Shown piece after piece: positions 1 to 25,836 of a DNA stretch of 64,000 nt. The DNA lies in IMG/VR virus record IMGVR_UViG_3300045988_015843, one strand, 5' to 3'. The position numbers and the translations under genes are program-made. Below the pieces are notes generated by a model, which was given only the letters and a program-made list of their open reading frames with translations, had not been told where the DNA came from and did not search any database. Source of the DNA: a virus. Every line of letters begins with the position of its first letter. Position 1 is the stretch's first letter.

Positions 1-623
1 GCTCGTTCAGCTTTCAAACCTTTAGATAACAAGGTCTTATATACGGATTCAGATGCTGTTATATGATCTTTAAACAGCTTCTTTGTTTCAGCATCATACG
101 TATTCCAGTCAGACGGATAGATATATTCAAGATCTCCGTTATACGTAACATACCTTGTACTTTCTTGCAGGAATGAAAATACTCTATGTCTCATGAATGA
201 TTGAGAGTTAATCCTGTTGCACGTAATCCTGAATGAATAACGCTTTACGTGAAGCTTATGGGGCTCTGTGAGATATTTGAGATCGTAAGTCCAACCATTC
301 TCGATAACCATTCGATAGTTTGTTGTTATGTATGCATTTCCATCAAACTCGATAACTCTAGAATACTTGTTTTGTTGATACATCTTAACCATCCCTTTGT
401 ACAACTTCTCGGTTTTAGGTATTGTCAAATAGATCGTAGCATGCTCTAATGCTGCACCATGGTTGTACGATATGAGTTTATTAGTAAATGCCTCAGCTGT
501 TGTAGAACGCCCATTCTCATCAAAAGACATATTCTTCTCTGATTTGTACGAAGTTCTACCAGCAAGCTCAACCATTTCGAATATTCCAAGTTTGTCGTAC
601 TGCTGAGTAAGTAATTCAACATG
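1..623 (-). CDS. thyX: Flavin-dependent thymidylate synthase ThyX; the C-terminal end runs off the left edge of the window
   Basis: Missing from the ORF track because it has no stop inside the window. The reverse frame is open from ATG (623..621) down to position 1. The translation contains the ThyX signature FMRHRVFSFLQESTRY (RHRxxSxxxxSxRY) and an N-terminal EMVELAGRTSYKSE motif. There is no in-frame TAG. A better-looking N-terminus (MKMIKPHVELLTQQ, ATG at 642..640) lies one frame off; see findings. Confidence 0.8.
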
Positions 624-712
624 TGGTTTAATCATCTTCATAATCAACGTTGTTATATATTCTTAATAACTTCTTCTATGCTTGTATCATGCGATCAACA
701 GATTTTACATAT

Positions 713-1386: not shown

Positions 1387-1498
1387 ATAGTTTATATATA
1401 ATATAATATTCCCCCGAAGCTCTCGTGGCTGTAACGTATTAACTAAGCGTTTTGGTTTCACAAGCTATGAAAAAATTTATAAAAAAATAAATTTTTAA

Positions 1499-1506
1499 TA
1501 TTTTTG
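1499..1506 (+). promoter_or_regulatory. Candidate Bacteroidota-type -7 promoter element (TAnnTTTG) upstream of the early plus-strand genes
   Basis: TATTTTTG at 1499-1506 matches TAnnTTTG and lies 59 nt upstream of ATG 1565. I found no well-spaced -33 TTTG, so this is weak. Confidence 0.2.
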
Positions 1507-1564
1507 CAACCAAAATGCGCACTTCATACGTTACTGCCCCAGTAATTTAAAACAACAGATTGCT

Positions 1565-1969
1565 ATGACAAAGAAATTAGAAGTGATTGAACCGTTCTTC
1601 GGACTTGAACTTGGTGATGTTATGAATCTCTCTGATGACGAAAAGTCTTATGTTGCAGAGTATAATTCTGCATACAAGGAGAATGACGATGATGATTCTT
1701 CTGTAAAGGCTACCTATTCGTCCAAGTGCTCTATCTCTGTCGATTATGCAAAAGAGCTTATTGACGAGGGCATGCTTAAGGAGCTCATTGATAAATCAGA
1801 GCCGTTTATAAATGTGTTTGATGAGATCGATTCATTGATTGAGAAGTATACGTATGACCTGAACAAGGTTGATACACAGGATATGCCTGAGTGTATGAAG
1901 GTCGAACAACGTACAGTGATGCTTAATCTCATCAAAGTTCTTAACTATTTAAAGGGTCTTAAGAAGTAA
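1565..1969 (+). CDS. Hypothetical acidic protein (134 aa), early block
   Basis: Intact ORF ending in TAA with no in-frame TAG. It is the first gene after the divergent intergenic region. Confidence 0.6.
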   Translation: MTKKLEVIEPFFGLELGDVMNLSDDEKSYVAEYNSAYKENDDDDSSVKATYSSKCSISVDYAKELIDEGMLKELIDKSEPFINVFDEIDSLIEKYTYDLNKVDTQDMPECMKVEQRTVMLNLIKVLNYLKGLKK

Positions 1970-2385
1970 TGCAAGAGAAGATTAATCAGAAACCTTTAGC
2001 TGAGGATGTAAGTAATAAGATCAAATATGAGTTCTTTGACAGCTTTTTAGTAAAGCCGCTTACACCAGTAAAGGTCAAGAAGGAATTCAGTACACCGATT
2101 GCGACAGATAAGCCTAAGGCTGATAAGAACGGAATCGAGGCAACTGATTATGATAAAGTAAAGAAAGAAGTTAAAGAGGTTGATTCAGACTATTTAACAG
2201 GTATTGTACTTAAGGTTCCATACAGATATACTAAATGGATGGGTAATGAGAAGAGTTATGATCTTCCTCCGATACATGTTGGAGATACGATTTTCTATAA
2301 AGCCAGACACTTTGAGTACTTCGATCTTGTTAAAGACTCTCATCTAGTACGACAATTTGACATTATCGGAAAGGTCCATGATTGA
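1969..2385 (+). CDS. Hypothetical protein, possibly a GroES/gp31-like co-chaperonin fold
   Basis: Intact ORF. The pattern FLVKPL..VKVKKE ... TGIVL ... HVGDTIFY ... DIIGKV follows the GroES layout (IKPL..RV.VK / GGIVL / VGD.V.F / DILA). This is motif-level resemblance only. Confidence 0.35.
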   Translation: MQEKINQKPLAEDVSNKIKYEFFDSFLVKPLTPVKVKKEFSTPIATDKPKADKNGIEATDYDKVKKEVKEVDSDYLTGIVLKVPYRYTKWMGNEKSYDLPPIHVGDTIFYKARHFEYFDLVKDSHLVRQFDIIGKVHD

Positions 2386-2587
2386 TGTTAATAGTTTGAG
2401 CAATCAAATATCTAAAGAACTCAATATTGATAAAAACATTGTCAATGATGTTATACACCAGGTATTTGATTGTACAGCAACGATTATGAAAGACCCGAAT
2501 GATCAAAGAGATATATTGTTTGCTAAGTTATTTAAATTTAAATTAAAACCAAGATTTAAACATGAAAACGATTGCAGCGACGTATAA
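2378..2587 (+). CDS. Hypothetical small protein (69 aa from ATG 2378)
   Basis: Taken from the track ORF 2357..2587. ATG 2378 forms an ATGATTGA overlap with the stop of the upstream gene. No TAG. Confidence 0.45.
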   Translation: MIDVNSLSNQISKELNIDKNIVNDVIHQVFDCTATIMKDPNDQRDILFAKLFKFKLKPRFKHENDCSDV

Positions 2588-2891
2588 TTCAGATGTACTT
2601 ATTGTCGATACAGAAACCGCTAATATCGAACCGCTTGATGTACAAAGGAATGCGTGCAACAGAGTATACATGGCTCCTGAAGATATGCATTTCAAGTTCA
2701 TAGATCGCGACAGGAGTGTTGAAGAGTTCGATGTTAAAGCTGGCGATATTATACTTGCGTTTTGGGATACAGATTTTCCGCACAAGTATATAAAGATAAC
2801 ATCTGACGAGTGGAAAGAAAACCTCGATAACTATAATAAACGAATGAAAGAACTTAAAACAATTAACGATGAAGTCAATGAAGCCTGTTAA
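2562..2891 (+). CDS. Hypothetical protein (109 aa)
   Basis: Intact ORF, TAA stop, no TAG. Confidence 0.5.
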   Translation: MKTIAATYNSDVLIVDTETANIEPLDVQRNACNRVYMAPEDMHFKFIDRDRSVEEFDVKAGDIILAFWDTDFPHKYIKITSDEWKENLDNYNKRMKELKTINDEVNEAC

Positions 2892-3231
2892 GAAATATGT
2901 GATCGTAGATCTTACAAACGTTGAGAGCCCCAGTGATGTATATGCAGCTTTTGTAGAGGCTAAGTGTGGTGTAGAGCCTATCACTAAAGAGGAGATGTTC
3001 AACTACGCTATGCACGTCACAGAGCTGATGAATTCAAACATCGTCAAGTCATGCGCTTATCTAGTAGATTATATTGATGCACTGATTGATACAATTGAGA
3101 GTGTTTATGATAATGATGATTCTGATGACGCTGAGAATGCCGTAAAGAAGCGAGAGGGTGAGGAGAATGAGGTTGAGAAGAAGCCTAATATCTTCAAGCG
3201 TTTCTGGAACTGGATTACACGTAAGAAATAA
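2869..3231 (+). CDS. Hypothetical acidic protein (120 aa)
   Basis: Intact ORF, TAA stop, no TAG. Confidence 0.5.
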   Translation: MKSMKPVKKYVIVDLTNVESPSDVYAAFVEAKCGVEPITKEEMFNYAMHVTELMNSNIVKSCAYLVDYIDALIDTIESVYDNDDSDDAENAVKKREGEENEVEKKPNIFKRFWNWITRKK

Positions 3232-3278
3232 ATAGTTGGTTACTAAAAACTATCTGCAGTGACACACAACACTGCAAT

Positions 3279-3370
3279 GCGGGAGTAGCTTATGAGGTAG
3301 AGCAGTGTGAAGTCTGGAATAATATCAGATGAGATCCTCATGGAAGCAGGTTCGAGTCCTGCCCCTGCGC
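3279..3370 (+). tRNA. Atypical tRNA-like gene with a type II (long variable arm) layout; anticodon not assignable by eye
   Basis: Elements that fit a type II tRNA:
- T arm GCAGG-TTCGAGT-CCTGC (3346-3362)
- D arm GCTT-ATGAGGTA-GAGC (3288-3303)
- acceptor 5' TGCGGGA(G) against 3' CCCTGCG, 6 of 7 pairs
- hairpin TCTGG-AATAATA-TCAGA (3313-3329)
- variable-arm hairpin TGAG-ATC-CTCA (3330-3340)
Problems: 8 extra nt (3305-3312) lie between the D and anticodon arms, and the 7-nt loop lacks U33. Read conventionally the anticodon would be UAA (Leu). It could be a degenerate or unusual tRNA. Confidence 0.45.
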
Positions 3371-3383
3371 AAAAAACTACAAT

Positions 3384-3602
3384 ATGCGGCTAAAAGAATC
3401 TAATAGACCAAAACATTTGTTGTACGCTATTCCTGCAGCATTTGTTGGTACGATATTATTCAGTACAGGTCTAGCGTTTGGAATGGAGTTTAAAGACAAA
3501 CAATGGGGAGGTAAGTTCGATTGGCTTGATATAGCTGCTACAGAAATAGGTGGTTTAATCGGACAAGCACTTCAAATAGGAGTGATTTCATTATTTGTTT
3601 AA
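3384..3602 (+). CDS. Small membrane protein (72 aa, two hydrophobic segments)
   Basis: Intact ORF. Hydrophobic stretches: LLYAIPAAFVGTILFSTGLAF and IGGLIGQALQIGVISLFV. Confidence 0.5.
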   Translation: MRLKESNRPKHLLYAIPAAFVGTILFSTGLAFGMEFKDKQWGGKFDWLDIAATEIGGLIGQALQIGVISLFV

Positions 3603-3606
3603 TTAA

Positions 3607-3631
3607 TTAACCTCCTTAAGAAAGAGGTTAA
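3607..3631 (+). terminator. Perfect 8-bp hairpin between the membrane-protein gene and the tRNA 5' half
   Basis: TTAACCTC-CTTAAGAAA-GAGGTTAA. There is no downstream T-run, so it may be a processing or attenuating structure rather than a terminator. Confidence 0.3.
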
Positions 3632-3669
3632 CACTGCCCTATGGTGTAGCGATTAGCACAAGAGGCTCT

Positions 3670-4648
3670 TTTATCCAATGAATAATTGAATATATGGAAA
3701 ATAAAATATATAAGCTCTCAGACGAACAGTTTGTTGAGCTGCTCAAGAATAGTTCGACTATATCTGAAGTGTTATTTAAATTAGGTTATAGTGTAAAGGG
3801 TAATTCTTGGGGGTTTGCTAAAGTTAAACAAAGAATGTCTGATTTAAATTTAGACGGAAGTATATTTAAAGGTAAATCTCCAATTACGAAATATGGTACT
3901 TTACACAAAGTAAATGCTTCAGATATATTAAAACCTAATTGTAAACATGCTCGTTCTGTTTTAAGACGATATGTCATAAAAAATAATCTAATCCCATATC
4001 GATGTGCGATTTGCGGATGTGTTGAATGGCAAGGTCGTACATTAAGCTTAGAGCTTGATCATATAAACGGAATCAACAACGATAATCGTATAGAAAATCT
4101 ACGATTTCTATGTCCGAATTGTCATAGTCAGACAACTACTTATGGTAGTAGAAATCAACAAAGAAATGATTCTGAATATGAAATTACAGACGATCTTAGA
4201 AATTTAGTTGAAGCTGAGTATCAAAAACGTCGTAATATAAAACAAGTTTCTTCAGCACTTGGTGTTCGTAGACATGTTGTAAACAGGATTGTTAGCGAAA
4301 GCGGTTTGAAAAAATCTAATCAAAAATATGTGATTCGATACGATGAGAACTGGAACGAAATTGCACGATATGGTTCTTTGATAGAGACTGCAAAGCAACT
4401 TATTCTCAACAACGAAGTTAAAACAAAACGAATTAAAACATGTACTCGTACGATCATGTACAATAAGGATAATTTTTGGTTGAACAGTCATTGGAAAATA
4501 TTGGATGGTAGCGGGATAATAAATAATCCGCTATTAGAATCTTCTCTAATTGACTCGGAAGACAATGTTGACGAGGCGCAAGCGAAAGCAGCGTGACAGA
4601 CTGAACGAGAAGACTGGTCTTAGGACTGGATGCAACAGTCGATTTATG
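3670..4648 (+). mobile_element. 979-nt intervening sequence in the anticodon loop of the suppressor tRNA, carrying an HNH homing-endonuclease ORF (group I intron-like; ribozyme core not verified)
   Basis: The 5' exon ends in U (3669) and the intervening sequence ends in G (4648), as at group I splice sites. No other junction giving a 7-nt loop satisfies both rules. The 3' flank has a GNRA-capped hairpin (AAGC-GAAA-GC, about 4578-4590) and ACUG...CAGU pairings (4600-03 / 4636-39). Only 24 nt precede the ORF and 52 nt follow it, so any catalytic core would have to overlap the coding sequence. Confidence 0.4.
3694..4596 (+). CDS. HNH homing endonuclease (300 aa)
   Basis: The motif CAICGC...LELDHINGINNDNRIENLRFLCPNCHSQ matches H-N-H with flanking Cys pairs. 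TGA stop, no in-frame TAG. It lies entirely inside the tRNA intervening sequence. Confidence 0.9.
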   Translation: MENKIYKLSDEQFVELLKNSSTISEVLFKLGYSVKGNSWGFAKVKQRMSDLNLDGSIFKGKSPITKYGTLHKVNASDILKPNCKHARSVLRRYVIKNNLIPYRCAICGCVEWQGRTLSLELDHINGINNDNRIENLRFLCPNCHSQTTTYGSRNQQRNDSEYEITDDLRNLVEAEYQKRRNIKQVSSALGVRRHVVNRIVSESGLKKSNQKYVIRYDENWNEIARYGSLIETAKQLILNNEVKTKRIKTCTRTIMYNKDNFWLNSHWKILDGSGIINNPLLESSLIDSEDNVDEAQAKAA

Positions 4649-4700
4649 AACCCTCCTGGTCCGGGTTTGACTCCTGGTAGGGCTACTAAAATATAATAAG

Positions 4701-5264
4701 ATGGAAATTAAATTCAAGAAACTTTCTCATAAGGCTGTAATGCCTTCAAAAGCACATAAGACAGATGCTGGTTTTGATCTAACTACTACGGGTATAACGA
4801 CAGAGTTGAATGAGTGTGGTCAGTTGGTGATCGTATATCATACAGATCTTGCATTAGAGATTCCTGAAGGATACTTTGCTCTGGTGATGCCAAGATCATC
4901 TATTGCAAAGAAGTCATTACGTCTTACGAATAGTTGTGGTGTGATCGATTCAGGCTATCGTGGTGAAATACTTGGTAAATTTATCGCAACTACAGATGTT
5001 GTTCCTGCCGTATACAAGGTTGATGATAAATTTGCTCAGCTGGTGATCTTGCCTGTTCCTGATGTAGAGTTTGTTGAGTCTGATAATTTTTCAGAATCTG
5101 ATCGAGCTGATGGTGGTTACGGATCTTCTGATAAGGCACAGACTGCTGTAGACTCTGATACTAATACATCTGGCAACGACGAAAATATTTCAGTGCGAAG
5201 TGCACGACCGACAGATTGGCAGTCTGCAGTAACTGAGGACAATCAGTGCGAGTCTGCAGCATAA
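4701..5264 (+). CDS. dut: dUTP diphosphatase (dUTPase) with an acidic/Ser-rich C-terminal extension
   Basis: Motifs: AGFDL, PRSSIAKK, GVIDSGYRGEI. Intact ORF with no TAG. Confidence 0.85.
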   Translation: MEIKFKKLSHKAVMPSKAHKTDAGFDLTTTGITTELNECGQLVIVYHTDLALEIPEGYFALVMPRSSIAKKSLRLTNSCGVIDSGYRGEILGKFIATTDVVPAVYKVDDKFAQLVILPVPDVEFVESDNFSESDRADGGYGSSDKAQTAVDSDTNTSGNDENISVRSARPTDWQSAVTEDNQCESAA

Positions 5265-5292
5265 TAACACATGACAACCATCAAGGTTGTTT

Positions 5293-5367
5293 GGAAGTTT
5301 AGCTCAGTTGGTTTAGAGCGTCTGCCTTACAAGCAGAAGGTCGATGGTTCGAATCCACCAACTTCCA
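5293..5367 (+). tRNA. tRNA-Val (anticodon UAC)
   Basis: Cloverleaf elements:
- acceptor GGAAGTT/AACTTCC, 7 of 7
- D arm GCTC-AGTTGGTTTA-GAGC
- anticodon arm TCTGC-CTTACAA-GCAGA
- variable AGGTC
- T arm GATGG-TTCGAAT-CCACC, one mismatch
- discriminator A
Total length 75 nt. Confidence 0.85.
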
Positions 5368-5403
5368 CCTTCATTTTTTTCATACTGACTTTTTGAATTT
5401 GCG

Positions 5404-5427
5404 TTACTCCAACTTCGGTTGGAGTAA
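5404..5427 (+). terminator. Perfect 10-bp hairpin with a UUCG tetraloop at the boundary between the TAG-free early island and the recoded late genes
   Basis: TTACTCCAAC-TTCG-GTTGGAGTAA. A T7 run precedes it at 5374-5380; no T-run follows. Confidence 0.35.
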
Positions 5428-5451
5428 TTGCGTATATACGTATATATAAAT

Positions 5452-5943
5452 ATGATTTATTCAAAGCTTAGACGTACAAATATACAGAATGCGGCAGGTA
5501 CTCCTGTCACACCTCGTATTTTACATATGCAAGAGCCTGATAAATTGAAAATCGTGGATAGCTCTCAGTTTCAATTCGGAGATGTTCTCGATGCAAAATC
5601 TACAATGGAACTTATCGGAAAGGGCGGTGGTTCTGGTGTAGATATGAAAATGCTCTAGGCATATGTGAACAAAATGACGATTGAGTATGATCCAGCAACT
5701 AAATCTGTAAAACTAATCTCTCCAGATGGGATTGTTATTGGATCTGCTGATATGTCATCTATTGCAACAGAGGGTGGTGTTGCAATTGAATCTGGTTCTT
5801 ACGATAAGGGTAGTGATAAACAGAACGTGCTGCGTCTGAAAATGACTGACGGATCTTCTAAGGAGATCTTGATGAACGATGTTATGGACTCTAATGACGA
5901 TTATTCTATCGACACAAAAGACATCGCATCAATCTTAAATTAA
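5452..5943 (+). CDS. Hypothetical protein (163 aa), 1 in-frame TAG (5656)
   Basis: Track ORFs 5428..5658 and 5665..5943 share frame 1 and are separated only by TAG. The start is taken at ATG 5452. Confidence 0.5.
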
Positions 5944-6024
5944 TCACTTAAATTTTTAAATTATGGAAGAGATTAACAAAATTTATACGAGTGACACGGC
6001 TAATAGCTTTAGCAATGGTGCTTG

Positions 6025-6708
6025 ATGGGCGCAATGCTTGGTAATAATGACCGCAACGATGCCTTGACAGCTATGTTAGCTAATGGTGGTAATCAGCAGA
6101 TGTGGAATAACCCGTTTGCATATCTGATATGGTTGATATTTACCGGTCAGTTCGGTGGCTTCGGCAATAACGCAAATAATTGCATTGGTGATCAAATCCA
6201 GAATTTACAAAATCAGATTCAAGACAACCATAATAGTGATCTCACTATGCAGGCTGTCAATGGTAACACTGGTGCTATTGCACAACTATCTCAGACATTG
6301 AATGTCGGATTCGATCAGGTACAGTCAGCTGTTAACCAGATGACTACGATGATGTAGGGTGGTATGAACAATATTAATACATCCATTTTATCTCAGGGTT
6401 ACCAGAATCAACTGAACAATTGTCAACAGACAAATACTATTCTGATGCAGAGTCAGGCGCTTCAGAATGCTGTTCAGAACGGTTTCGCACAGGTAGGTTT
6501 CCAGGCTGAGCGAAACGCATGTGATGCTAAGGAAACAAGTACACAGAATACACAGAAGATCATTGATACCCTGACTAATCATTGGAATCTGGAACAGCAG
6601 ACTACGATTCAGCAACTACGCGATGAGATTGGTAGATTAAATCAAACCAATGCTCTAATCTCAGTTCTTAAACCGAGCTCTGCTGTCACAACAACTACAA
6701 CAGTTTAA
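6025..6708 (+). CDS. Q/N-rich hypothetical protein with one hydrophobic segment (227 aa), 1 in-frame TAG (6355)
   Basis: Track ORFs 6022..6357 and 6364..6708 share a frame and are joined by TAG. TAA stop. Confidence 0.55.
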
Positions 6709-6719
6709 TAAAATAATAA

Positions 6720-8030
6720 ATGCAATATTTAGATCTATTAGGCCTTCAGCAACTTTGGACGTCTGCTAAGGCCAAGTTTGCTACAAAAGGTACTCTTGCA
6801 AATAGTGGTATTACAGACGGTTACTCAAGCATTGAGACCGGTACTGTTGTCCCTATTAGGAATCTTGATAATGGTATTCTCGCAGATATTATCACTGGAA
6901 GTGATAATCATAAACTTAAGACTCAGTATGTCACAGTTGACGCCACTGGTGGTCTTGCTACAACGAACTATGTTGACACCAAGGTTGGTGCTGTAAAGGT
7001 TCCCGCTTATACGCTCACCAAGTCTACATCTACTGATTATGCTGCCGTATATCACCTCCAGAAGGATGGTGCTAATGTTGGTGAAGCCATCAACATTCCG
7101 AAGGATATGGTTGTTGAGTCAGGTAAGGTTGTTTGGGGTTCTTATGTTGATGGTGTGTTCACTCCCGCAACGGATAAGAAGAATGCTACTCCGTATGTTG
7201 AGTTGACTCTGGCTAACAGTACAGCTAACAAGATTTATATCGCTGTTGCTGATCTTGTCAATGAGCATAAGGCTGGTACTGGTATTAGTATTACGAATAA
7301 CACTGATGGTACTCGTACGATTGAACTTGGAGCTGATGTTAATGCAAAGATCAACTAGAGTGTGATTGAATTCAGCGTACCTAAAGAGGGCAATAAATTG
7401 CTATGCCATAAAAACAACAACGACTCAGTGGCGATATTGGCGGGTGATGGAACAAATGTTATTATAGGTGAAAATTCGGATGGAATAGCTGAGCTCACTA
7501 TTAATGCGAATATTCTAAATGATGTCAATGCCGCAAAGTCTCAGTCAAGCACTAACAAGACCAATCTTGACGCACTAACTAAGCGTGTTGATGGTATTGT
7601 TGCAACGGGTGGTGAGGCCAACCAGGATGCTTATTCTAACATTAAGGTTGGTTCTACTACGCTTGCTGCTACAAGCAAGACTGATACTGTATAGTTTGCT
7701 GGTGCTGGTCTGATTTCTGTAACTGGTTCTACTGCAGACAAGAAGGTTACGATCGGCCACTCTAATCCGACTGGTGCCGCTGTTAAGGCAGCTGGTTTCT
7801 ATAAGTTTGCTACGGATGCTGCTGGTCACGCTACTGGTTTGACTGCTGTTGCTGCTAGCGATATTACGGCACTCATCGGTGCTCATGGCCTTACGCTGAG
7901 CAAGACGAATGCTGCGAACGATACTGCTGCTATCACGATTGGTAGCACTTCTTACACGGTTGGTCCGATTCCTCTTGGTGATGAGACTAATCCTGCTAAG
8001 GACACTGTTCGTTATATTCTGAATCATTAA
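6720..8030 (+). CDS. Tail-fibre-like structural protein (436 aa), 2 in-frame TAG (7356, 7692)
   Basis: Track ORFs 6720, 7362 and 7839 are all in frame 0. The gaps contain only TAG. The Gly/Thr/Ala-rich sequence with a FYKFATDAAGH motif is typical of fibre proteins. The N-terminus MQYLDLLGLQQLW parallels that of ORF 9039. Confidence 0.6.
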
Positions 8031-8033
8031 TAT

Positions 8034-8073
8034 TGGATTGGTACGGGGTTATCTCGTACCCAATCCATTTTTT
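8034..8073 (+). terminator. Rho-independent terminator
   Basis: Stem TGGATTGGTACG / CGTACCCAATCCA with one bulge, loop GGGTTATCT, followed by TTTTTT (8068-8073). Confidence 0.7.
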
Positions 8074-8085
8074 AACAACATACAT

Positions 8086-8508
8086 ATGCTATTTAAAGAT
8101 TTGAAACAAGGATGTTCTGTCTACATGTTTGACAGGAACAACATTGAGGTACACACTGTACAAGTTGTAACAGTCTCAACACCTCATATGGATAAGTACA
8201 ATAACCAATTTGATATGGTGGTTGATGTCGCAGTTTTAGATGCCGGTAAGACCCAAACGTATACGTTTAAAGATAGCAATGAAGTTGGGTATACCGGTCA
8301 ACTTATGATAACTCCTAACAAAGAGTGTGTTATAAAAGAACTCCAGTTACTTAAATCTCAATCGCAGACTATACTTGATAACATCGATCAACATAGAAAT
8401 AATGTTGAAAAGTGTAATGCACTTATTCAAGAGTTTGACCCTGCTATAAAAGCAAAGCAGGAAAACGATGCTCGATACGAAGAGCTAAAACAATCTTAGA
8501 GAGTTTGA
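8086..8508 (+). CDS. Hypothetical protein (140 aa), 1 in-frame TAG (8497)
   Basis: ATG 8086 lies downstream of the terminator. The ORF reads through TAG to TGA at 8506. Confidence 0.5.
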
Positions 8509-8541
8509 AACAAATGATTATTGATTCTAATAAACCTAACG

Positions 8542-9030
8542 ATGGAAACTCTTGATAAGATATTTAAAGATTATGGATACGATAAACAAACATCGGTAAT
8601 TCATAAAGCGATCACAAACATATCTGAATATTTACAGAAGGTTTTGGATAAAGACCAGTATTGTAAAGTGATCAAAGATACATATTGTACGTTTGTTGGT
8701 GGACATTACAATGAACCGTTTGCTGATGATCAGGTATCTAAGATGTATTACGAAAAAGATGGGTCTAAATACACAGGACCATTTTTGAACAAGAATCTCG
8801 TACTAAATAAGTATAAAGAGATACGTGGCGTAATACCTGATTATAATGAGTGGGATTATTATGTAACTGTACAGATGATATATTCAGATAACTATAATCT
8901 CATACATGAGTGGTTTCCGAACATATCAGAAGATGAGTTCAATCAAAAGATTTATCAACTTGCTACCAACTGGTTGAACGATAAGGATAACCCGTTTGGT
9001 AATAGTAAAACATGGTGTTATTTTAACTAA
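8542..9030 (+). CDS. Hypothetical protein (162 aa)
   Basis: Track ORF 8521..9030 trimmed to the first ATG. No TAG. Confidence 0.5.
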   Translation: METLDKIFKDYGYDKQTSVIHKAITNISEYLQKVLDKDQYCKVIKDTYCTFVGGHYNEPFADDQVSKMYYEKDGSKYTGPFLNKNLVLNKYKEIRGVIPDYNEWDYYVTVQMIYSDNYNLIHEWFPNISEDEFNQKIYQLATNWLNDKDNPFGNSKTWCYFN

Positions 9031-9038
9031 TATAAATA

Positions 9039-10592
9039 ATGAAATTTTTAGATCAATCAGGTTTAGTAATTGTTCAATCTTGGATCAACAATAGCTTTGC
9101 AAAAGTTGATCAAGCGTTCGGTACTATAAGTTATGCAGGAAACATATCCGGTATAACTGTTAGTCAAGTCAGTACAACAACAAACGGTAGTCCTTCAACT
9201 GTTTATTACGACACAACTGGTGGACAATTTGTATTGAAAGCTGGTAACAACGTATATTACAACAACTGGCCGAACAAATATGTATGGGTTGTTCCTGGCA
9301 TTAATGAGCCTTGGGGTTGTGTAATCTATAAAGATCTGAGCTTAAATAAGCTATATAAATATCTTCCCGAGGAAGGTAGTATGACAGCGTGTGACGTAAC
9401 AGATTATCCTGCAATGCGTCTTCGTGATCTGCTTGCTGATATTGAGATGTATATTGCTCAGAAAAGTATATATGCTCCGTCACAGCATACTCACTCTATT
9501 GCAAATGTTACTGGACTTCAGGCCAAGCTTGACACTATAAACAAGGGTTTGACCGTACTTGGACTTGATCAATGGGGTGCTGTTAAAGTAGATGGTGTTC
9601 TGACCAATTCTATTAATGCTGCACAAGGTGGTGTTGGAAATCCGACCGATATATATATTGCACAGTCTATCTCAAGTCCGTCTGGTACGATATCTGGAAT
9701 TGTTGGTAGGATTGGATCTGCATATTATACGACATGGAGTGGTACTAATGTACCAACCAATTTGTATATGAAGACAAATGGTAGTCCTTATTACAGCAAG
9801 TATTATTATACTATGGGTTCTAATGGTCTGCCAAACGCGGTATACAGATGGAACGGTCAGAAGTTTACGATCGATGAGGATTATTCAGATCATTCGATTT
9901 CTGATGGATTCGGCAAAGACCTTGAGGATGCAATACAGCCGGCATTGGATTATATTGATACAGTATCTGCTGAGTCGGTATCCAGAACAGATGCTGTTAC
10001 TCATAGTGCTATTAGCAGTACATCTAGCACAGTAAGATTAGCTTATGTACTTTCGTCAGCAAGTACACATGGTAATATTAAGAATGCTAGTGCTTCAGAG
10101 CTCGGCCTTGTCAATGGTGTAAGTTCATCAGGTACAGGTAATGTTGTAACAAGTATGTCAAAAGCTGCTAACTCAAGTAGTATTACATGGGAACGTAATT
10201 GGGTTGAGCCGTGGACAGCTAATGCTTATCATAAACAGGCATCTGCAACAGCTCGTATTTCAGCTACTGAAGGTGAGTTCTCGGTCCTTGACTTCAGATC
10301 AGGTTCAGGCATGTATCTTGGTTTTGCATCTCCGTATAGTTTGACTAACGGCATGAACCATCATTGGAGAGGTTTGATTATGAAGAAAGCTAATCAGCCT
10401 ATTAATATTGCAAAGCCTTCAATGCTCAAAACAGATTCTGTAATCCTGTGTAACCTTCCACAAACTCAGATTGTTAGTGGTACGAATTTCTATTTTGACG
10501 CATATACTACGACAAATACATCATCACTATCACATGATACTTTGGTACTAATACTGTATCCGGTTACAAACGTATTAGAGTTTTCAGCTTAA
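9039..10592 (+). CDS. Tail fibre / receptor-binding-like protein (517 aa), TAG-free
   Basis: Intact ORF. The N-terminus MKFLDQSGLVIVQSW parallels ORF 6720. Ser/Thr/Gly-rich. Confidence 0.5.
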   Translation: MKFLDQSGLVIVQSWINNSFAKVDQAFGTISYAGNISGITVSQVSTTTNGSPSTVYYDTTGGQFVLKAGNNVYYNNWPNKYVWVVPGINEPWGCVIYKDLSLNKLYKYLPEEGSMTACDVTDYPAMRLRDLLADIEMYIAQKSIYAPSQHTHSIANVTGLQAKLDTINKGLTVLGLDQWGAVKVDGVLTNSINAAQGGVGNPTDIYIAQSISSPSGTISGIVGRIGSAYYTTWSGTNVPTNLYMKTNGSPYYSKYYYTMGSNGLPNAVYRWNGQKFTIDEDYSDHSISDGFGKDLEDAIQPALDYIDTVSAESVSRTDAVTHSAISSTSSTVRLAYVLSSASTHGNIKNASASELGLVNGVSSSGTGNVVTSMSKAANSSSITWERNWVEPWTANAYHKQASATARISATEGEFSVLDFRSGSGMYLGFASPYSLTNGMNHHWRGLIMKKANQPINIAKPSMLKTDSVILCNLPQTQIVSGTNFYFDAYTTTNTSSLSHDTLVLILYPVTNVLEFSA

Positions 10593-10605
10593 TCAATAAC
10601 CAGCC

Positions 10606-11847
10606 ATGATAAACAATAAACTATTATATTATAAAACAAAGGATGGTTATGTTAAAGATGCGTCAAACATCTCTTCTGAATCAATAGTTTTCATCGAAGA
10701 TGATGGTACAATACGCACACATAACAAAACATTCGGACAGCCGTTGACGGCTGACGAGGACAACCTTACTGTGAAAAACAATGTGATTACAGTTAAGAAT
10801 CGTATATCGGATCATGGTCGTGGCTATGTTGTTCTCAAGAAAGACGATGATTTTGTATCATCTGTTGTAGACCAAAATACAACGTATGTTATCAAATATG
10901 ATTATGTACTAAATGAAGGTCTTAATCTACCTAAGGATGTAACCCTTAAGTTTGAAGGTGGCTCTCTTACAGGTGGTAGTATCGTTGGTCATGGAGCGTA
11001 TATAGACGCTCCAACTGATCATCAGATATTTAATAATGTACTTGTTGGAGGAAGCTTCTACAATCGTTACTTACCTATCGAATGGTTCGGGCTCCAGAGA
11101 GGTACAATAGTGGGTGTAAACTCATTTAATCTAAAAGGTACTAAATCTGTAGACAATCTTCCTCAAGATCCTGAAGAGTATGATGCATATGCCGTAGGTC
11201 ATGATGTATACGTATATTATAAGGACAGAGGTTGGATTAAGCATGAGAATATTATATCAAGCAAAGCTCTTGATATACAAGCATCACAACCTTCTGAGAG
11301 CATATCTATAACTAGTACGAGTATTGATTACGCTGTATCAGAAGATGGTCAGAATGCTCCAGCAACTGGATGGGCTAAAGAAATACCTACTATAACAATA
11401 ACACATCGATATGTATGGACTCGTACGATTGTGAATTATTCTGATGGTACGAATACAACATCTTATTCTGTAGCATACTCTGGTAAAGATGGTAAGAACG
11501 CTTCTGCACTCACTATAAAGGGTCGTGCTGGTAACCATTTTGCAACAGTAGATGATTTAAAGGCTAGCAATCCTCCTCAGATTTCAGGAACTGTTATATA
11601 TCTAGTCGATAAACCTTCTGCACACATTACAATAGTAAAGGATGGAAATGTATTAGCTGGTACTGATGAGCAGGTTAATGATGGTGATGCATACATTATA
11701 GCAACAGCTGATAATTCTGGTTCAACAAATGATGTTGTTTGGATTGCTACAACAAATGGTTGGATTGAGTACCACGGAGGTATCGGATCTGATTCTGAAG
11801 TAGATGTTATAACAGATAAAGACCTGTCTGATATGGGTATTAAATGA
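10606..11847 (+). CDS. Tail-associated structural protein (413 aa), TAG-free
   Basis: Intact ORF adjacent to the fibre genes. Function not recognised. Confidence 0.4.
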   Translation: MINNKLLYYKTKDGYVKDASNISSESIVFIEDDGTIRTHNKTFGQPLTADEDNLTVKNNVITVKNRISDHGRGYVVLKKDDDFVSSVVDQNTTYVIKYDYVLNEGLNLPKDVTLKFEGGSLTGGSIVGHGAYIDAPTDHQIFNNVLVGGSFYNRYLPIEWFGLQRGTIVGVNSFNLKGTKSVDNLPQDPEEYDAYAVGHDVYVYYKDRGWIKHENIISSKALDIQASQPSESISITSTSIDYAVSEDGQNAPATGWAKEIPTITITHRYVWTRTIVNYSDGTNTTSYSVAYSGKDGKNASALTIKGRAGNHFATVDDLKASNPPQISGTVIYLVDKPSAHITIVKDGNVLAGTDEQVNDGDAYIIATADNSGSTNDVVWIATTNGWIEYHGGIGSDSEVDVITDKDLSDMGIK

Positions 11848-11848
11848 T

Positions 11849-12364
11849 ATGTTTGACATACAAGGAAATAAAATAAAACTAAGTACTGAGGATTTAGCAA
11901 TACCCCCATTTAAAGATTACTACAACAATGCTGAAGATAAGACGTATGCATTAAAGGCTATTGAATACGTCATATGGAATAAGAAATGGAATAGTCCATA
12001 TAATGCATATCCAGAAAAAGATAGAGCGTCTAAGATAGCTTATGATGTGTTTGGAGATGCTAATTATATTCCAGATGATACAGTTAAAGATTTGATGCAG
12101 CGATTTACAGAATTTCAAGAAACTCCTGGAACAAGATTGCTAACAGCATCTAGATCTGCTGCAGAAGGACTTATTGAAGCATTGAGTAGTTATTCTGAAG
12201 ATGGTATGGATATTGACACAGCTATCAAAGTTACTCGTATCCTCAAGGATGTTGGTAATATAGTCAAGTCTCTTGATATAGCTGAAAAACAAACTAAAGC
12301 TGAACAATAGGAGACTGGTAGAATTAAAGGCGGTGGTACACTCAGCGCTTTTGAAATTGCTTAA
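11849..12364 (+). CDS. Hypothetical protein immediately upstream of terminase (171 aa; possible small terminase by position only), 1 in-frame TAG (12308)
   Basis: Track ORF 11849..12310 continues through TAG to TAA at 12362. Confidence 0.45.
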
Positions 12365-21786: not shown

Positions 21787-22539
21787 ATGGTAGTTGAATT
21801 AAAAATTAAAAAGAAAAATCCCTGGGCTGGACTGTTAAAGTATAAGCATTGTTTTGATTACATTGCCCCTTATTACACTAGATCCGGGTCGATATATACA
21901 GGATTGACTCCTGAAGATGAAAAATATTTTGAGGAAGCTATGGGCCTTCCTGAAGGTAAGTTGTCTAAGACAAGTGATTATTGGACAACGTTTTGTGTAA
22001 AGGTTGGTGCTAGAGGATTGCTCCTTGATGATCAGTTCCCGACACAGGCTATGCAAATTAAATTTCTAAGTAATCACAAGCGTGTTGCAACGTCTCTTGA
22101 TAAGCTGACTGCTGGTAAGGATTATTTGCTAATCAATAGTGAGGCAGAGGCTGAGCAGAAGAATAAGGCTAATAAAGTACGTAGAGAAGCTATTAAAGCG
22201 TATGACACTATGTCTATGGATGACATGCGCAAGTGTCTTAGATTATTTGGTGTTCGTTCAGACAATATGTCTAACCAACTTATAGAATCAACAATGTTCG
22301 ATATTGTTGACAAAAAGAGCGATCAGTACTTGACCAAATGGGTTAATAATAAGAAGAAGGATACCGAGTTTATCATTGAAGAGGCTGTGGCCAAGGGTGT
22401 ACTTCGTAAGGAGCGTACACAATATTATTATGGTACTGAGATGATTGCCGACTCACTTTCAGACGCTGTTGCATATCTTGATAACAAGAAGAACCAAGAC
22501 CTAAAGCTTTCTATTATAAACGAGATTAAGAATAAGTAA
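21787..22539 (+). CDS. Hypothetical structural-module protein (250 aa), TAG-free
   Basis: Intact ORF, TAA stop. Confidence 0.5.
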   Translation: MVVELKIKKKNPWAGLLKYKHCFDYIAPYYTRSGSIYTGLTPEDEKYFEEAMGLPEGKLSKTSDYWTTFCVKVGARGLLLDDQFPTQAMQIKFLSNHKRVATSLDKLTAGKDYLLINSEAEAEQKNKANKVRREAIKAYDTMSMDDMRKCLRLFGVRSDNMSNQLIESTMFDIVDKKSDQYLTKWVNNKKKDTEFIIEEAVAKGVLRKERTQYYYGTEMIADSLSDAVAYLDNKKNQDLKLSIINEIKNK

Positions 22540-24722: not shown

Positions 24723-25775
24723 ATGATTACATTTGTAAATACGGTTTTGGTATCTAATCTCAAAGCCGAGAATATTGCTACTGCAGCTCCTGCTGCTTGT
24801 GACAGCATGAATGCTGTATCTGCTGATTATGGCAAGTTTGTCATCATGGATATGGACAAGGGTACGTTTGTGACTGCAGATGAGGCTAAGAAGGCTGATC
24901 GTATTAAGATCGGTCTTGTTACAAACAAGAACACTGTTCGTCGTGGCCCGAAGGACATTAAGTACCTTCCGATCATAAAGTGGTCTAACGTAATCGCTAT
25001 GGATGCTATTAAGAGCGTTAACGCTAGCGTTTATCCCACTGGTGATGCTGAGACTGAGGATACGGTTACGATTGACTTTTCAAAGATTGATGCTACGACT
25101 CTTGCTAAGTTTGCAGAGGGTGGTAAGCGTTTGATCGTTCGTCTTACGTTTAAGGATCTGCCCACTCGTTATCGTAAGTGGACTGAGTCTTATGAGTACG
25201 TGACTGAGGTTGACGATACTGCTGAGACGATTGCTAAGAACGTTGCTAACATGATCAATGCTCAGTGGAAGCGTGCTCGTGTACAGGCTTCTGATGCAGC
25301 TGGTGTTGTTACGCTCGTAGCACTTCCTTACGATGACGACAATGCTTCTAACACGATCAACTGGGCAGGTAAGGTTCGTTTTACTGTAAATACGTATTAC
25401 ACGGATCCTGCTGCTGATGGTTGGGAGAGTAAGAATAAGAATTTCCCGAAGGGTGTTGTTATCTCAAAGACTGAGGGTAAGCAGTATCCTGCAATGGGTA
25501 AGCTTGTACGTGATGAAGAGTCTAAGGCAATGGGTTATCAGGGTATCCTGAACCAGGGCTGTTGCACGTGGCCGATCATTCGCCCCGAGCTCGAAGCACA
25601 GAATGATGGTAAGTACAACATGCTTACGATTGAGTTCCGCACTCCGTACCGTGCAGCTGACGACATTACTCGTTATACGCAGCAAACGCTGAACGTATAT
25701 GCACAGGGTGATATTGCAGATCTTGCCGGTATCTTTGGTGTAACTCCTGAGGCTCTAACAGACGCCAAACCTTAA
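24723..25775 (+). CDS. Abundant virion structural protein (350 aa), TAG-free; exact role unknown (auxiliary capsid or tail component)
   Basis: Intact ORF with the same expression-type codon bias as the capsid gene. A strong terminator follows. Confidence 0.5.
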   Translation: MITFVNTVLVSNLKAENIATAAPAACDSMNAVSADYGKFVIMDMDKGTFVTADEAKKADRIKIGLVTNKNTVRRGPKDIKYLPIIKWSNVIAMDAIKSVNASVYPTGDAETEDTVTIDFSKIDATTLAKFAEGGKRLIVRLTFKDLPTRYRKWTESYEYVTEVDDTAETIAKNVANMINAQWKRARVQASDAAGVVTLVALPYDDDNASNTINWAGKVRFTVNTYYTDPAADGWESKNKNFPKGVVISKTEGKQYPAMGKLVRDEESKAMGYQGILNQGCCTWPIIRPELEAQNDGKYNMLTIEFRTPYRAADDITRYTQQTLNVYAQGDIADLAGIFGVTPEALTDAKP

Positions 25776-25788
25776 TAGTAACAACAAA

Positions 25789-25824
25789 GGTAGAGTAGAG
25801 GTATTCTCTACCCTACCTTTTTTT
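25789..25824 (+). terminator. Rho-independent terminator
   Basis: GGTAGAGTAGAG-GTATT-CTCTACCCTACC (one mismatch) followed by TTTTTTT. Confidence 0.8.
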
Positions 25825-25836
25825 ATATCAGTTCGT

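Follow-up and report, generated by a model that had tools for sequence, protein, structure and literature searches.

The subject of this study is a run of TAG-free genes and small-RNA loci between positions 1565 and 5451 of a viral DNA, the IMG/VR record IMGVR_UViG_3300045988_015843, of which a 64,000-nucleotide (nt) stretch, hereafter the window, was analysed. A preliminary description had read this segment as an early island, in which standard-code genes and an amber suppressor transfer RNA (tRNA) are expressed first and late genes with TAG can be translated only once this has happened. The segment is probably a promoter-proximal 'code-change' module that heads the rightward block of virion genes, holds open reading frames (ORFs) whose translation would not depend on the suppressor, and most likely fires with the late wave of transcription. 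The initial observation holds in essence, though the pattern is less sharp and less unique than had been claimed. A standard-code module with an amber suppressor does lie upstream of TAG-containing virion genes; the 'early' label is not supported, the sharp switch at position 5452 is specific to this strain, and TAG-free runs in the late block, together with TAG codons in the HU-like genes of two relatives, run against a strict partition. The architecture is that of the already published code-change, or late-gene recoding, model, and the most interesting content of the segment is an intron-split, endonuclease-invaded suppressor gene.

The window comes from a TAG-to-Gln recoded gut crAss-like phage of the Suoliviridae, subfamily Oafivirinae. 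Its portal and major capsid protein (MCP) region is 75–78% identical in nucleotide sequence (megablast) to cr7_1, cr273_1, cr130_1 and cr131_1; of these four crAss-like relatives, the classification records of cr131_1 and cr7_1 were checked, and both read Crassvirales, Suoliviridae, Oafivirinae. A leftward and a rightward arm are separated by a divergent intergenic region of 375 nt. The rightward arm, on the plus strand, comprises the island, eight variable genes, the terminase (12367), the portal, the MCP (20099), tail genes and a 7265-codon ORF, and its island and terminase gene order is collinear with that of cr131_1, which has the same succession including tRNA-Val, the membrane protein, tRNA(CUA), an endonuclease gene and the dUTPase. 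Plus-strand ORFs cover 62 kb of the window under code 15 versus 43 kb under code 11, and the long ones form a continuous gene array once TAG is a sense codon; the terminase contains 7 in-frame TAG codons, the portal 13 and the 7265-codon ORF 52. Twelve related viral contigs, six close strains and six lineages about 50% diverged, were compared (contigs are labelled L followed by a number). The TAG codons at 5656, 6355 and 1135 (minus strand) are exchanged for CAG or CAA in sibling strains. Because of these swaps, and because the suppressor resembles tRNA-Gln (its closest counterpart among the IAS virus and crAss001 tRNAs compared is the IAS tRNA-Gln), TAG is a sense codon corresponding to Gln. 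Proteomic proof of this assignment comes from other crAss-like phages only (Peters 2022).

The eight consecutive plus-strand ORFs between 1565 and 5264, which include the HNH gene and dut, amount to 1129 codons, 28 of them CAA or CAG, and hold no in-frame TAG, in agreement with the earlier count of about 1130. Off-frame, TAG is equally common in the island (15.9 per 1000) and downstream (14–20 per 1000). The first ORF (1565–1969) encodes a DUF7399 protein (Pfam PF24132, 2e-36) with orthologues in 12 of 12 related loci, and the second (1969–2385) a Cpn10/GroES-like small protein with 48% identity to the 'chaperonin' gene of cr131_1, which is itself a weak Cpn10 match. Since the profile-profile comparison of this family with the crAss001 gp15/IAS 'chaperonin' gave a probability of 1.6%, which is not significant, its orthology to crAss001 is only positional. 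There follow an HU/IHF-like small DNA-binding protein (2378–2587; phrog_379, 0.005; PF00216, 0.11), whose orthologues carry one TAG in cr131_1 and two in L017, and two hypothetical proteins, the first with a collinear cr131_1 orthologue (2562–2891) and the second encoded without any Gln codon whatever (2869–3231). A small membrane protein of 72 residues (3384–3602; phrog_38535), an intron-encoded HNH homing endonuclease (3694–4596; phrog_10822, 2.6e-44; PF01844) and a dUTPase (4701–5264; phrog_135, 3e-48; PF00692, 4e-19) complete the set. Among these island ORFs, the only ones screened for accessory factors, none encodes release factor 2 (RF2) or glutaminyl-tRNA synthetase (GlnRS), and blastp of the island proteins against the crAss001 early proteins gp96–104 returned no match.

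All three tRNA-type loci found in the 64 kb by ARAGORN and Rfam lie inside the island, as the preliminary description had it: a tRNA-like RNA at 3279–3369, the split tRNA(CUA), and tRNA-Val(UAC) at 5293–5367 on the plus strand (ARAGORN; Rfam, 72.3 bits). The amber suppressor is encoded on the plus strand in two exons, the first (3635–3669) ending in CUCU after anticodon position 35 and the second running from 4649 to 4685. Joined in silico (3635–3669 to 4649–4686), they form a 73-nt cloverleaf with the anticodon CUA (tRNA(cta)), in which a mismatch at U1 is conserved. The predicted junction, GGCTCT/AACCCTCC, is fixed between anticodon positions 35 and 36 because strain L009 carries the uninterrupted sequence: its intact tRNA(CUA) allele is identical to the spliced product at 72 of 72 positions. 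ARAGORN in intron mode did not recover this 1.1-kb split gene, and all split relatives were likewise missed.

The 979 nt that separate the exons (3670–4648, plus strand) are a group-I-type intron. A U precedes the 5' splice site and a G the 3' splice site (CUCU/UUUAUCC ... UUUAUG/AACC), with the terminal G at 4648, and a core of P3, P4/5, P6, P7 and P8 is located at about 4500–4640. An alignment of 19 copies supports the topology P3, P4/5, P6, P7, P3', P8, P7' with a P3/P7 pseudoknot; its 42 pairs are paired in 99.5% of cells, compensatory changes occur in 17 of them, and covariation scores 0.396, compared with 0.05–0.13 in shifted controls. R-like AGACU(G/A)AAC and S-like A(C/U)AGUC core elements are present, and inspection of two sequences by eye shows a helix that appears to close off the ORF, as AUCCAAU/AUUGGAU here and AAUUUGAA/UUCAAAUU in L033. 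Rfam scans at gathering and at permissive thresholds found no group I, hepatitis delta virus (HDV)-like or other ribozyme in the intron or the tRNA flanks, and no HDV-like family was among the Rfam matches at E ≤ 5 over 3200–5460, although the coverage of theta ribozymes by Rfam 15 is unverified. The only candidate P1 guide, a GGGG that lies 140 nt inside the intron within the codons of a conserved Trp-Gly pair, was rejected as evidence, as its neighbouring base covaries inconsistently with the exon.

This intron belongs to a family of invaders of the same site. At least 23 viral contigs of 37–282 kb carry the HNH-bearing form between nt 35 and nt 36 of the anticodon, and all 23 of its HNH relatives in IMG/VR occupy that site of tRNA(CUA)-type genes (the insertion survey covered 3635–4685 of the window and the loci L006, L008, L010, L014 and L017–L040). 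Across the 23 copies, the HNH ORFs contain 238 Gln codons and not a single TAG. L014 has its insertion 3' of an intact anticodon arm, and its HNH ORF has 2 TAG. At the same site, L008 carries a different, ORF-less intron of 189 nt with a canonical GGAGC guide, which is unrelated to the HNH introns and scores 27.1 bits (E = 1.7e-4) against Rfam group I, under the gathering score of 50. Among sibling strains the HNH intron is present, absent or replaced; by this pattern it is evidently mobile, and the suppressor tRNA gene evidently a hot spot for homing elements. In cr131_1 (L002, 9356–10135) and L011 (12160–12939), a free-standing homing-endonuclease gene stands directly 3' of a tRNA(CUA) allele that is divergent; in L007, which shares this allele, only a 79-codon ORF (6173–6412) follows. 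An endonuclease beside the divergent allele suggests intron-less homing at the tRNA(CUA) locus. A search limited to one collection of papers found no group I or HNH intron in a phage suppressor tRNA and no tRNA introns in Crassvirales, which is not proof of novelty.

Both ends of the segment are marked by conserved elements. Some 55 nt 5' of the first island ATG lies a palindromic control element (1427–1538, plus strand; inverted repeat I1) of the form TAACGT .. GGTT(G/T)CA .. AT-rich core .. TTTGCAACC .. ACGTTA, preceded at 1203–1360 by three to four iterons of about 40 nt (TAGTCTTAC...GAGACTCATG; repeat families D1–D5, spacing 38–41 nt). The motif is unique among the intergenic regions of the window, and every relative, including those about 48% identical, has TAACGT..GGTTGCA..AT-rich..TTGCAACC..ACGTTA upstream of the DUF7399 gene; a search of crAss001 and of IAS virus showed that neither has the palindrome. 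The control element and the iterons together may form a promoter/operator or an origin. The idea that TGCAACC recurs as a promoter motif was rejected, its frequency being at chance, and Bacteroides-type TAnnTTTG boxes, which are not enriched in intergenic DNA, were dropped as evidence. At the other end, the perfect UUCG-capped hairpin reported at 5404–5427 (plus strand) is confirmed: it has a perfect 10-bp stem, is 100% conserved in six strains and is terminator-like, but lacks a T-run here and hence was not called by a terminator scan. All relatives have an equivalent GC-rich hairpin after dUTPase/tRNA-Val, with a T-run in L013 (T8), L002 and L017. Directly 3' of the hairpin, at 5431–5450 (plus strand), a CGTATATACGTATATATA motif may act as a promoter element of the unit that follows; L002, L012, L014 and L015 have (C)GTATATA(TA)C after the hairpin. 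Since a conserved upstream element and a terminator-like hairpin flank it, the module 1565–5451 appears to be a discrete unit. As a unique border between codes the hairpin was rejected, similar hairpin-plus-T-run structures being found at 8031–8085, at 25776–25836 and after the MCP.

These elements can be assembled into a pathway. Transcription of the unit would start after the palindromic control element and stop at the hairpin, yielding small conserved proteins, tRNA-Val, a degenerate tRNA-like RNA and the tRNA-Gln-like amber suppressor (CUA). The island ORFs would be kept TAG-free, or almost so, as they would be translated while little or no mature suppressor exists, and the HNH ORF inside the intron would likewise be held in the standard code. 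The genes from the terminase to the RNA polymerase (RNAP), and several leftward genes, would require the suppressor, which would first need maturation, since a mobile group-I-type intron divides anticodon position 35 from position 36. By analogy with crAss001, the module would fire in a late transcription wave; in that case the switch would amount to a delay inside the wave, made up of transcription, splicing and processing, charging by the host GlnRS and finally competition with release factor 1 (RF1). A bolder extension, which I consider improbable, is that the intron is not just a parasite but itself the gate: GTP-dependent self-splicing would set the lag, the TAG-free HNH protein would be translated from unspliced RNA ahead of the switch and aim at intron-less alleles of the suppressor in co-infecting recoded phages, and many 'suppressor-less' recoded phages would carry split suppressors.

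The late timing is taken from crAss001, the source of the sole time-resolved data for a gut crAss-like phage (PMC8375218, table of supplementary Fig. 4b). There, the minus-strand genes gp96–gp104 and tRNA t24, by the divergent region, are up 8–13 log2 by 10 min, while the plus-strand tRNAs t1–t4, t16–t18 and t23 are up 8–17 log2 only at 30–60 min; gp4–gp7, gp10 and gp12–gp18, upstream of the terminase, rise by 8–17 log2 at 30–60 min as well, and the terminase and portal switch on in the same 30–60-min step as the tRNA array (PMC8375218). By position, the equivalent of the island is thus late and that of the TAG-dense minus-strand gene 713–1189 early, so that the 'early' label is not supported. 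It is nevertheless possible, at a probability well below that of the late module, that the island and the suppressor form an early transcription class, expressed first and making TAG-containing late genes translatable afterwards. Such an order of events is what Borges et al. propose generally, and it would suit an island that has its own conserved upstream element and terminator-like end, is TAG-poor throughout the subfamily, and has TAG-rich leftward genes near its control region that would need an early suppressor. Yet all measured crAss001 genes and tRNAs of the equivalent plus-strand segment rise at 30–60 min, the early class being the minus-strand operon; dUTPase and the Cpn10-like and HU-like proteins do not count as regulatory 'early' functions; HU and Cpn10 are late in crAss001; and the HU-like gene has TAG in cr131_1 and L017. 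A 'late leader' seems more likely than an 'early island', although the choice is not settled.

A second question is whether there is a programme at all, or only short, Gln-poor genes and gene-by-gene avoidance of TAG where efficient translation matters, the island being one of several such stretches. The window taken alone leaves some room for this. Against the uniform reference that the preliminary description had proposed (144 TAG in 19,309 downstream codons), the probability of finding no TAG in the island is 2e-4 per codon. The island is Gln-poor (Gln-type codons 2.5%, versus 4.5–4.8% elsewhere), and the depletion weakens to between 0.009 and 0.065 once Gln content, the HNH gene and gene heterogeneity are considered: the TAG share of 0 in 28 Gln-type codons has P = 0.009 (Fisher, 0.015), exclusion of the mobile HNH ORF gives 0.057, and a beta-binomial model of gene-to-gene variation 0.019–0.065. 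TAG-free windows of equal size make up 0.65% of those downstream. No TAG-free run in the window is longer than the 1247 codons in three genes at about 8500–12308 (partly tail-fibre-like, 8542–11847), which are in the late arm and not in the island, and the MCP (CAG in 16 of 16) and two further structural genes, 21787–22539 and 24723–25775, are TAG-free too. Density climbs stepwise, from none in the island to 1 per 372 codons in the eight genes at 5452–12364 (plus strand, TAG-poor, partly tail-fibre-like; 6 TAG in 2229 codons, at positions that differ between strains) and 1 per 124 from the terminase onward; the earlier estimate of one TAG per 60–140 codons downstream therefore holds for the last of these regions but not for 5452–12364. 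The eight post-hairpin genes differ from the core that begins with the terminase (P = 0.003) but not from the island (Fisher P = 0.34). Per gene, over 5452–63998, the more a gene prefers CAG, the lower its TAG share of Gln-type codons (Spearman −0.71, P = 1e-4). Expression-linked avoidance of TAG could lie behind this, or else an origin of TAG chiefly from CAG, which takes force from it as an argument against a programme; and codon optimisation as the cause of the island's lack of TAG was ruled out, its CAG share (10 of 28) being ordinary.

What makes the absence of a programme unlikely is the comparison with relatives. The island is TAG-free in all six close strains, and in the six diverged lineages pooled its families have 3 TAG in 158 Gln-type codons (1.9%), versus 56 in 334 (16.8%) downstream (P = 1.8e-7), all three lying in HU-like genes (cr131_1 and L017). 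By these counts, depletion is real at the family level, yet not absolute. One relative, L013 (IMGVR_UViG_3300012016_000020), keeps the island gene order without tRNA(CUA) and without the membrane protein and its 1724 downstream codons are free of TAG; apparently a relative with the standard code, it is a useful natural control. The border is another matter. Recoded genes do start at 5452 in this genome, right after the hairpin, as had been claimed; however, of the first two TAGs past this point, that at 5656 is CAG or CAA in 5 of 6 siblings and that at 6355 in 6 of 6, which is every strain alignable there, and all seven genes 3' of the hairpin in L011 lack TAG. A code border at 5452 is for these reasons evidently not conserved but specific to this strain.

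Nor is the division one of left versus right, as the preliminary description had noted. The minus-strand gene 713–1189, the first of the leftward arm, has the 5 in-frame TAG ascribed to it, in 158 codons (1 per 32), which makes it the densest gene of the window; it is a real and conserved hypothetical gene, its orthologues aligning end to end across the TAG positions. A leftward 568-residue HExxH-motif protein has 7–12 TAG in relatives (L006, 5168–6874, minus strand, and orthologues), while ThyX (3–641, minus strand, at the end of the leftward arm of the window) and others have none. Given these TAG-rich leftward genes, recoding goes gene by gene and not arm by arm. Such variability in replication genes was already observed by Borges et al.

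That recent or mobile DNA from standard-code sources (the HNH intron, the membrane protein, the tRNAs) explains the TAG-free island without selection for a code switch is very unlikely: the HNH intron does come and go among siblings, the 72-residue protein is far more alike across families than are its neighbours, and the positions of tRNA-Val and the endonuclease gene vary among relatives, yet a vertically inherited core (DUF7399, the Cpn10-like protein, two hypothetical proteins and dUTPase) is collinear in all relatives and also TAG-free, and the HNH family is confined to suppressor tRNAs of recoded phages and nevertheless avoids TAG throughout its Gln codons, which argues for selection and not recent arrival. 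The membrane protein shares 90% identity with its cr131_1 counterpart and 88% with that of IAS virus, a member of a different family in which the gene is placed within the tRNA array; neighbouring proteins reach just 30–58%. This suggests horizontal transfer, or very strong constraint tied to the tRNA cluster.

Several points weigh against a late code-change module. Its timing is borrowed from another family (crAss001 belongs to the Steigviridae and uses the standard code), in which homology to the small proteins is weak or undetectable (gp14 and gp15) and the control palindrome is missing. A separate promoter-like element with a terminator-like hairpin would equally fit a separate temporal class. 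The TAG-rich leftward genes need the suppressor, and if they are expressed early or mid, the suppressor would have to be early too. In this single genome the depletion is only nominally significant, and the next 2229 codons are nearly as TAG-poor. As to the intron, Rfam (RF00028) finds no match in the window even at E ≤ 10, and a convincing P1 or internal guide sequence was sought and not found; for these two reasons self-splicing stays a prediction.

Group I introns in the anticodon loops of bacterial tRNAs are known from cyanobacterial tRNA-Leu(UAA) and Azoarcus tRNA-Ile. The intron described here resembles bacterial tRNA group I introns (see also PMC13168695) in its anticodon-loop site, the U before the 5' splice site, the terminal G, the P3–P8 core with its P3/P7 pseudoknot and the existence of intron-less alleles. 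It differs in that the host gene is a phage amber suppressor, that the HNH ORF fills most of the intron and overlaps the 5' hairpin of the core, and that the 5' splice site has no identifiable P1 or guide and the Rfam model scores nothing. Theta (HDV-like) ribozymes have been tied to suppressor tRNA maturation in phages (Kienbeck et al. 2024, PMC10879173). Common to both would be ribozyme-dependent maturation of a suppressor tRNA in a recoded gut phage, with a proposed role in the code switch; here, by contrast, the RNA is an intron within the tRNA and not a 3' trailer, and 3200–5460 has no HDV-like match. Lak megaphages have short, enigmatic tRNA introns (Devoto et al. 2019, PMC6784885), which likewise lie in tRNA genes of TAG-recoded gut phages and are polymorphic in their presence between strains, but which, according to the text of that paper, are short, lack an endonuclease ORF and occur in tRNA-Tyr, tRNA-Thr and others, not in a suppressor.

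Late-gene stop-codon recoding with a phage suppressor tRNA was described in crAss-like phages by Yutin et al. 2021 (PMC7886860), the 'code change' model was proposed and mapped on crAss-like genomes by Borges et al. 2021/22, and low- and high-amber domains go back to Ivanova 2014; a 2026 preprint restates these domains and a 'code change module', and reports recoded Suoliviridae with no detectable suppressor. The window agrees with these systems in several ways: its terminase, portal, tail and RNAP genes read TAG as Gln, it has a phage tRNA(CUA) and a TAG-poor standard-code block, it belongs to the Delta/Suoliviridae family, and its suppressor lies upstream of the recoded structural block. It departs from them in four respects: the TAG-poor block is the head of the virion-gene strand instead of the replication module, recoding is heavy in several genes on the replication side, TAG density climbs gradually without a sharp border, and the suppressor is interrupted by an intron and so missed by standard tRNA finders. 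With crAss001 (Shkoporov et al. 2021, PMC8375218) it shares an array placed after the divergent region and before terminase and portal, in which tRNAs are mixed with small ORFs, HNH genes and HU and Cpn10-like genes, and a gp16 homologue (24% identity) just 5' of the terminase. By contrast, crAss001 uses the standard code, has 23 tRNAs, no suppressor and no Oafivirinae palindrome, shows weak or undetectable homology among the small proteins, and its segment is experimentally late.

The remaining features are of lesser bearing. The plus-strand RNA at 3279–3369 resembles a tRNA in its acceptor, D and T arms, but a segment of 31 nt replaces the anticodon stem-loop. It falls short of a canonical tRNA (a cloverleaf with a 7-nt anticodon loop, and the Rfam and ARAGORN scores): it scores 27.6 bits with the Rfam tRNA model, under the threshold of 29, and ARAGORN gives 'tRNA-?(ggaa)', an undetermined 4-base anticodon. 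It is kept at 93–99% in five sibling strains. Similar RNAs, conserved among strains, with a good acceptor stem and T arm, an aberrant body and a 17–31-nt 'anticodon' region, lie in L002 (about 8553–8640 and 8676–8750) and L017 (about 11523–11600), and the crAss001 early operon holds a comparable 'tRNA-OTHER (taat)'. A match to the type III hammerhead ribozyme at the Rfam gathering score (49.8 bits) was found in the related crAss-like contig L014 (654–712, minus strand). Searches of 5452–10592 and of 713–1189 against PHROGs and Pfam returned almost no matches. Within 5963–6025, a 1-nt deletion relative to strain L006 (GGTGCT-TGATGG here, GGTGCTATGATGG there) shifts the frame of the first 21 codons of gene 5963/6025–6708, and reflects either an error in the assembly or a genuine truncation of the N terminus. 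The uninterrupted 7265-codon ORF (39340–61137, plus strand) presumably encodes the giant RNAP/cargo protein found in crAss-like virions, though it is unusually long, and a second ORF of more than 950 codons lies 3' of it and runs beyond the edge of the window.

In the Crassvirales it is thus unsafe to equate TAG-free with early, as the best precedent has the equivalent tRNA module late. The position of the crAss001 early genes is held here by the most heavily recoded gene, and recoding therefore acts gene by gene and not block by block; gain and loss of TAG from CAG or CAA is ongoing between near-identical strains, which makes borders drawn from one genome unreliable. Split suppressors that tRNA finders miss offer a concrete explanation for some of the recoded phages reported to have no suppressor and, with the suppressor split by an intron, an RNA-processing step now belongs in any model of the code switch.

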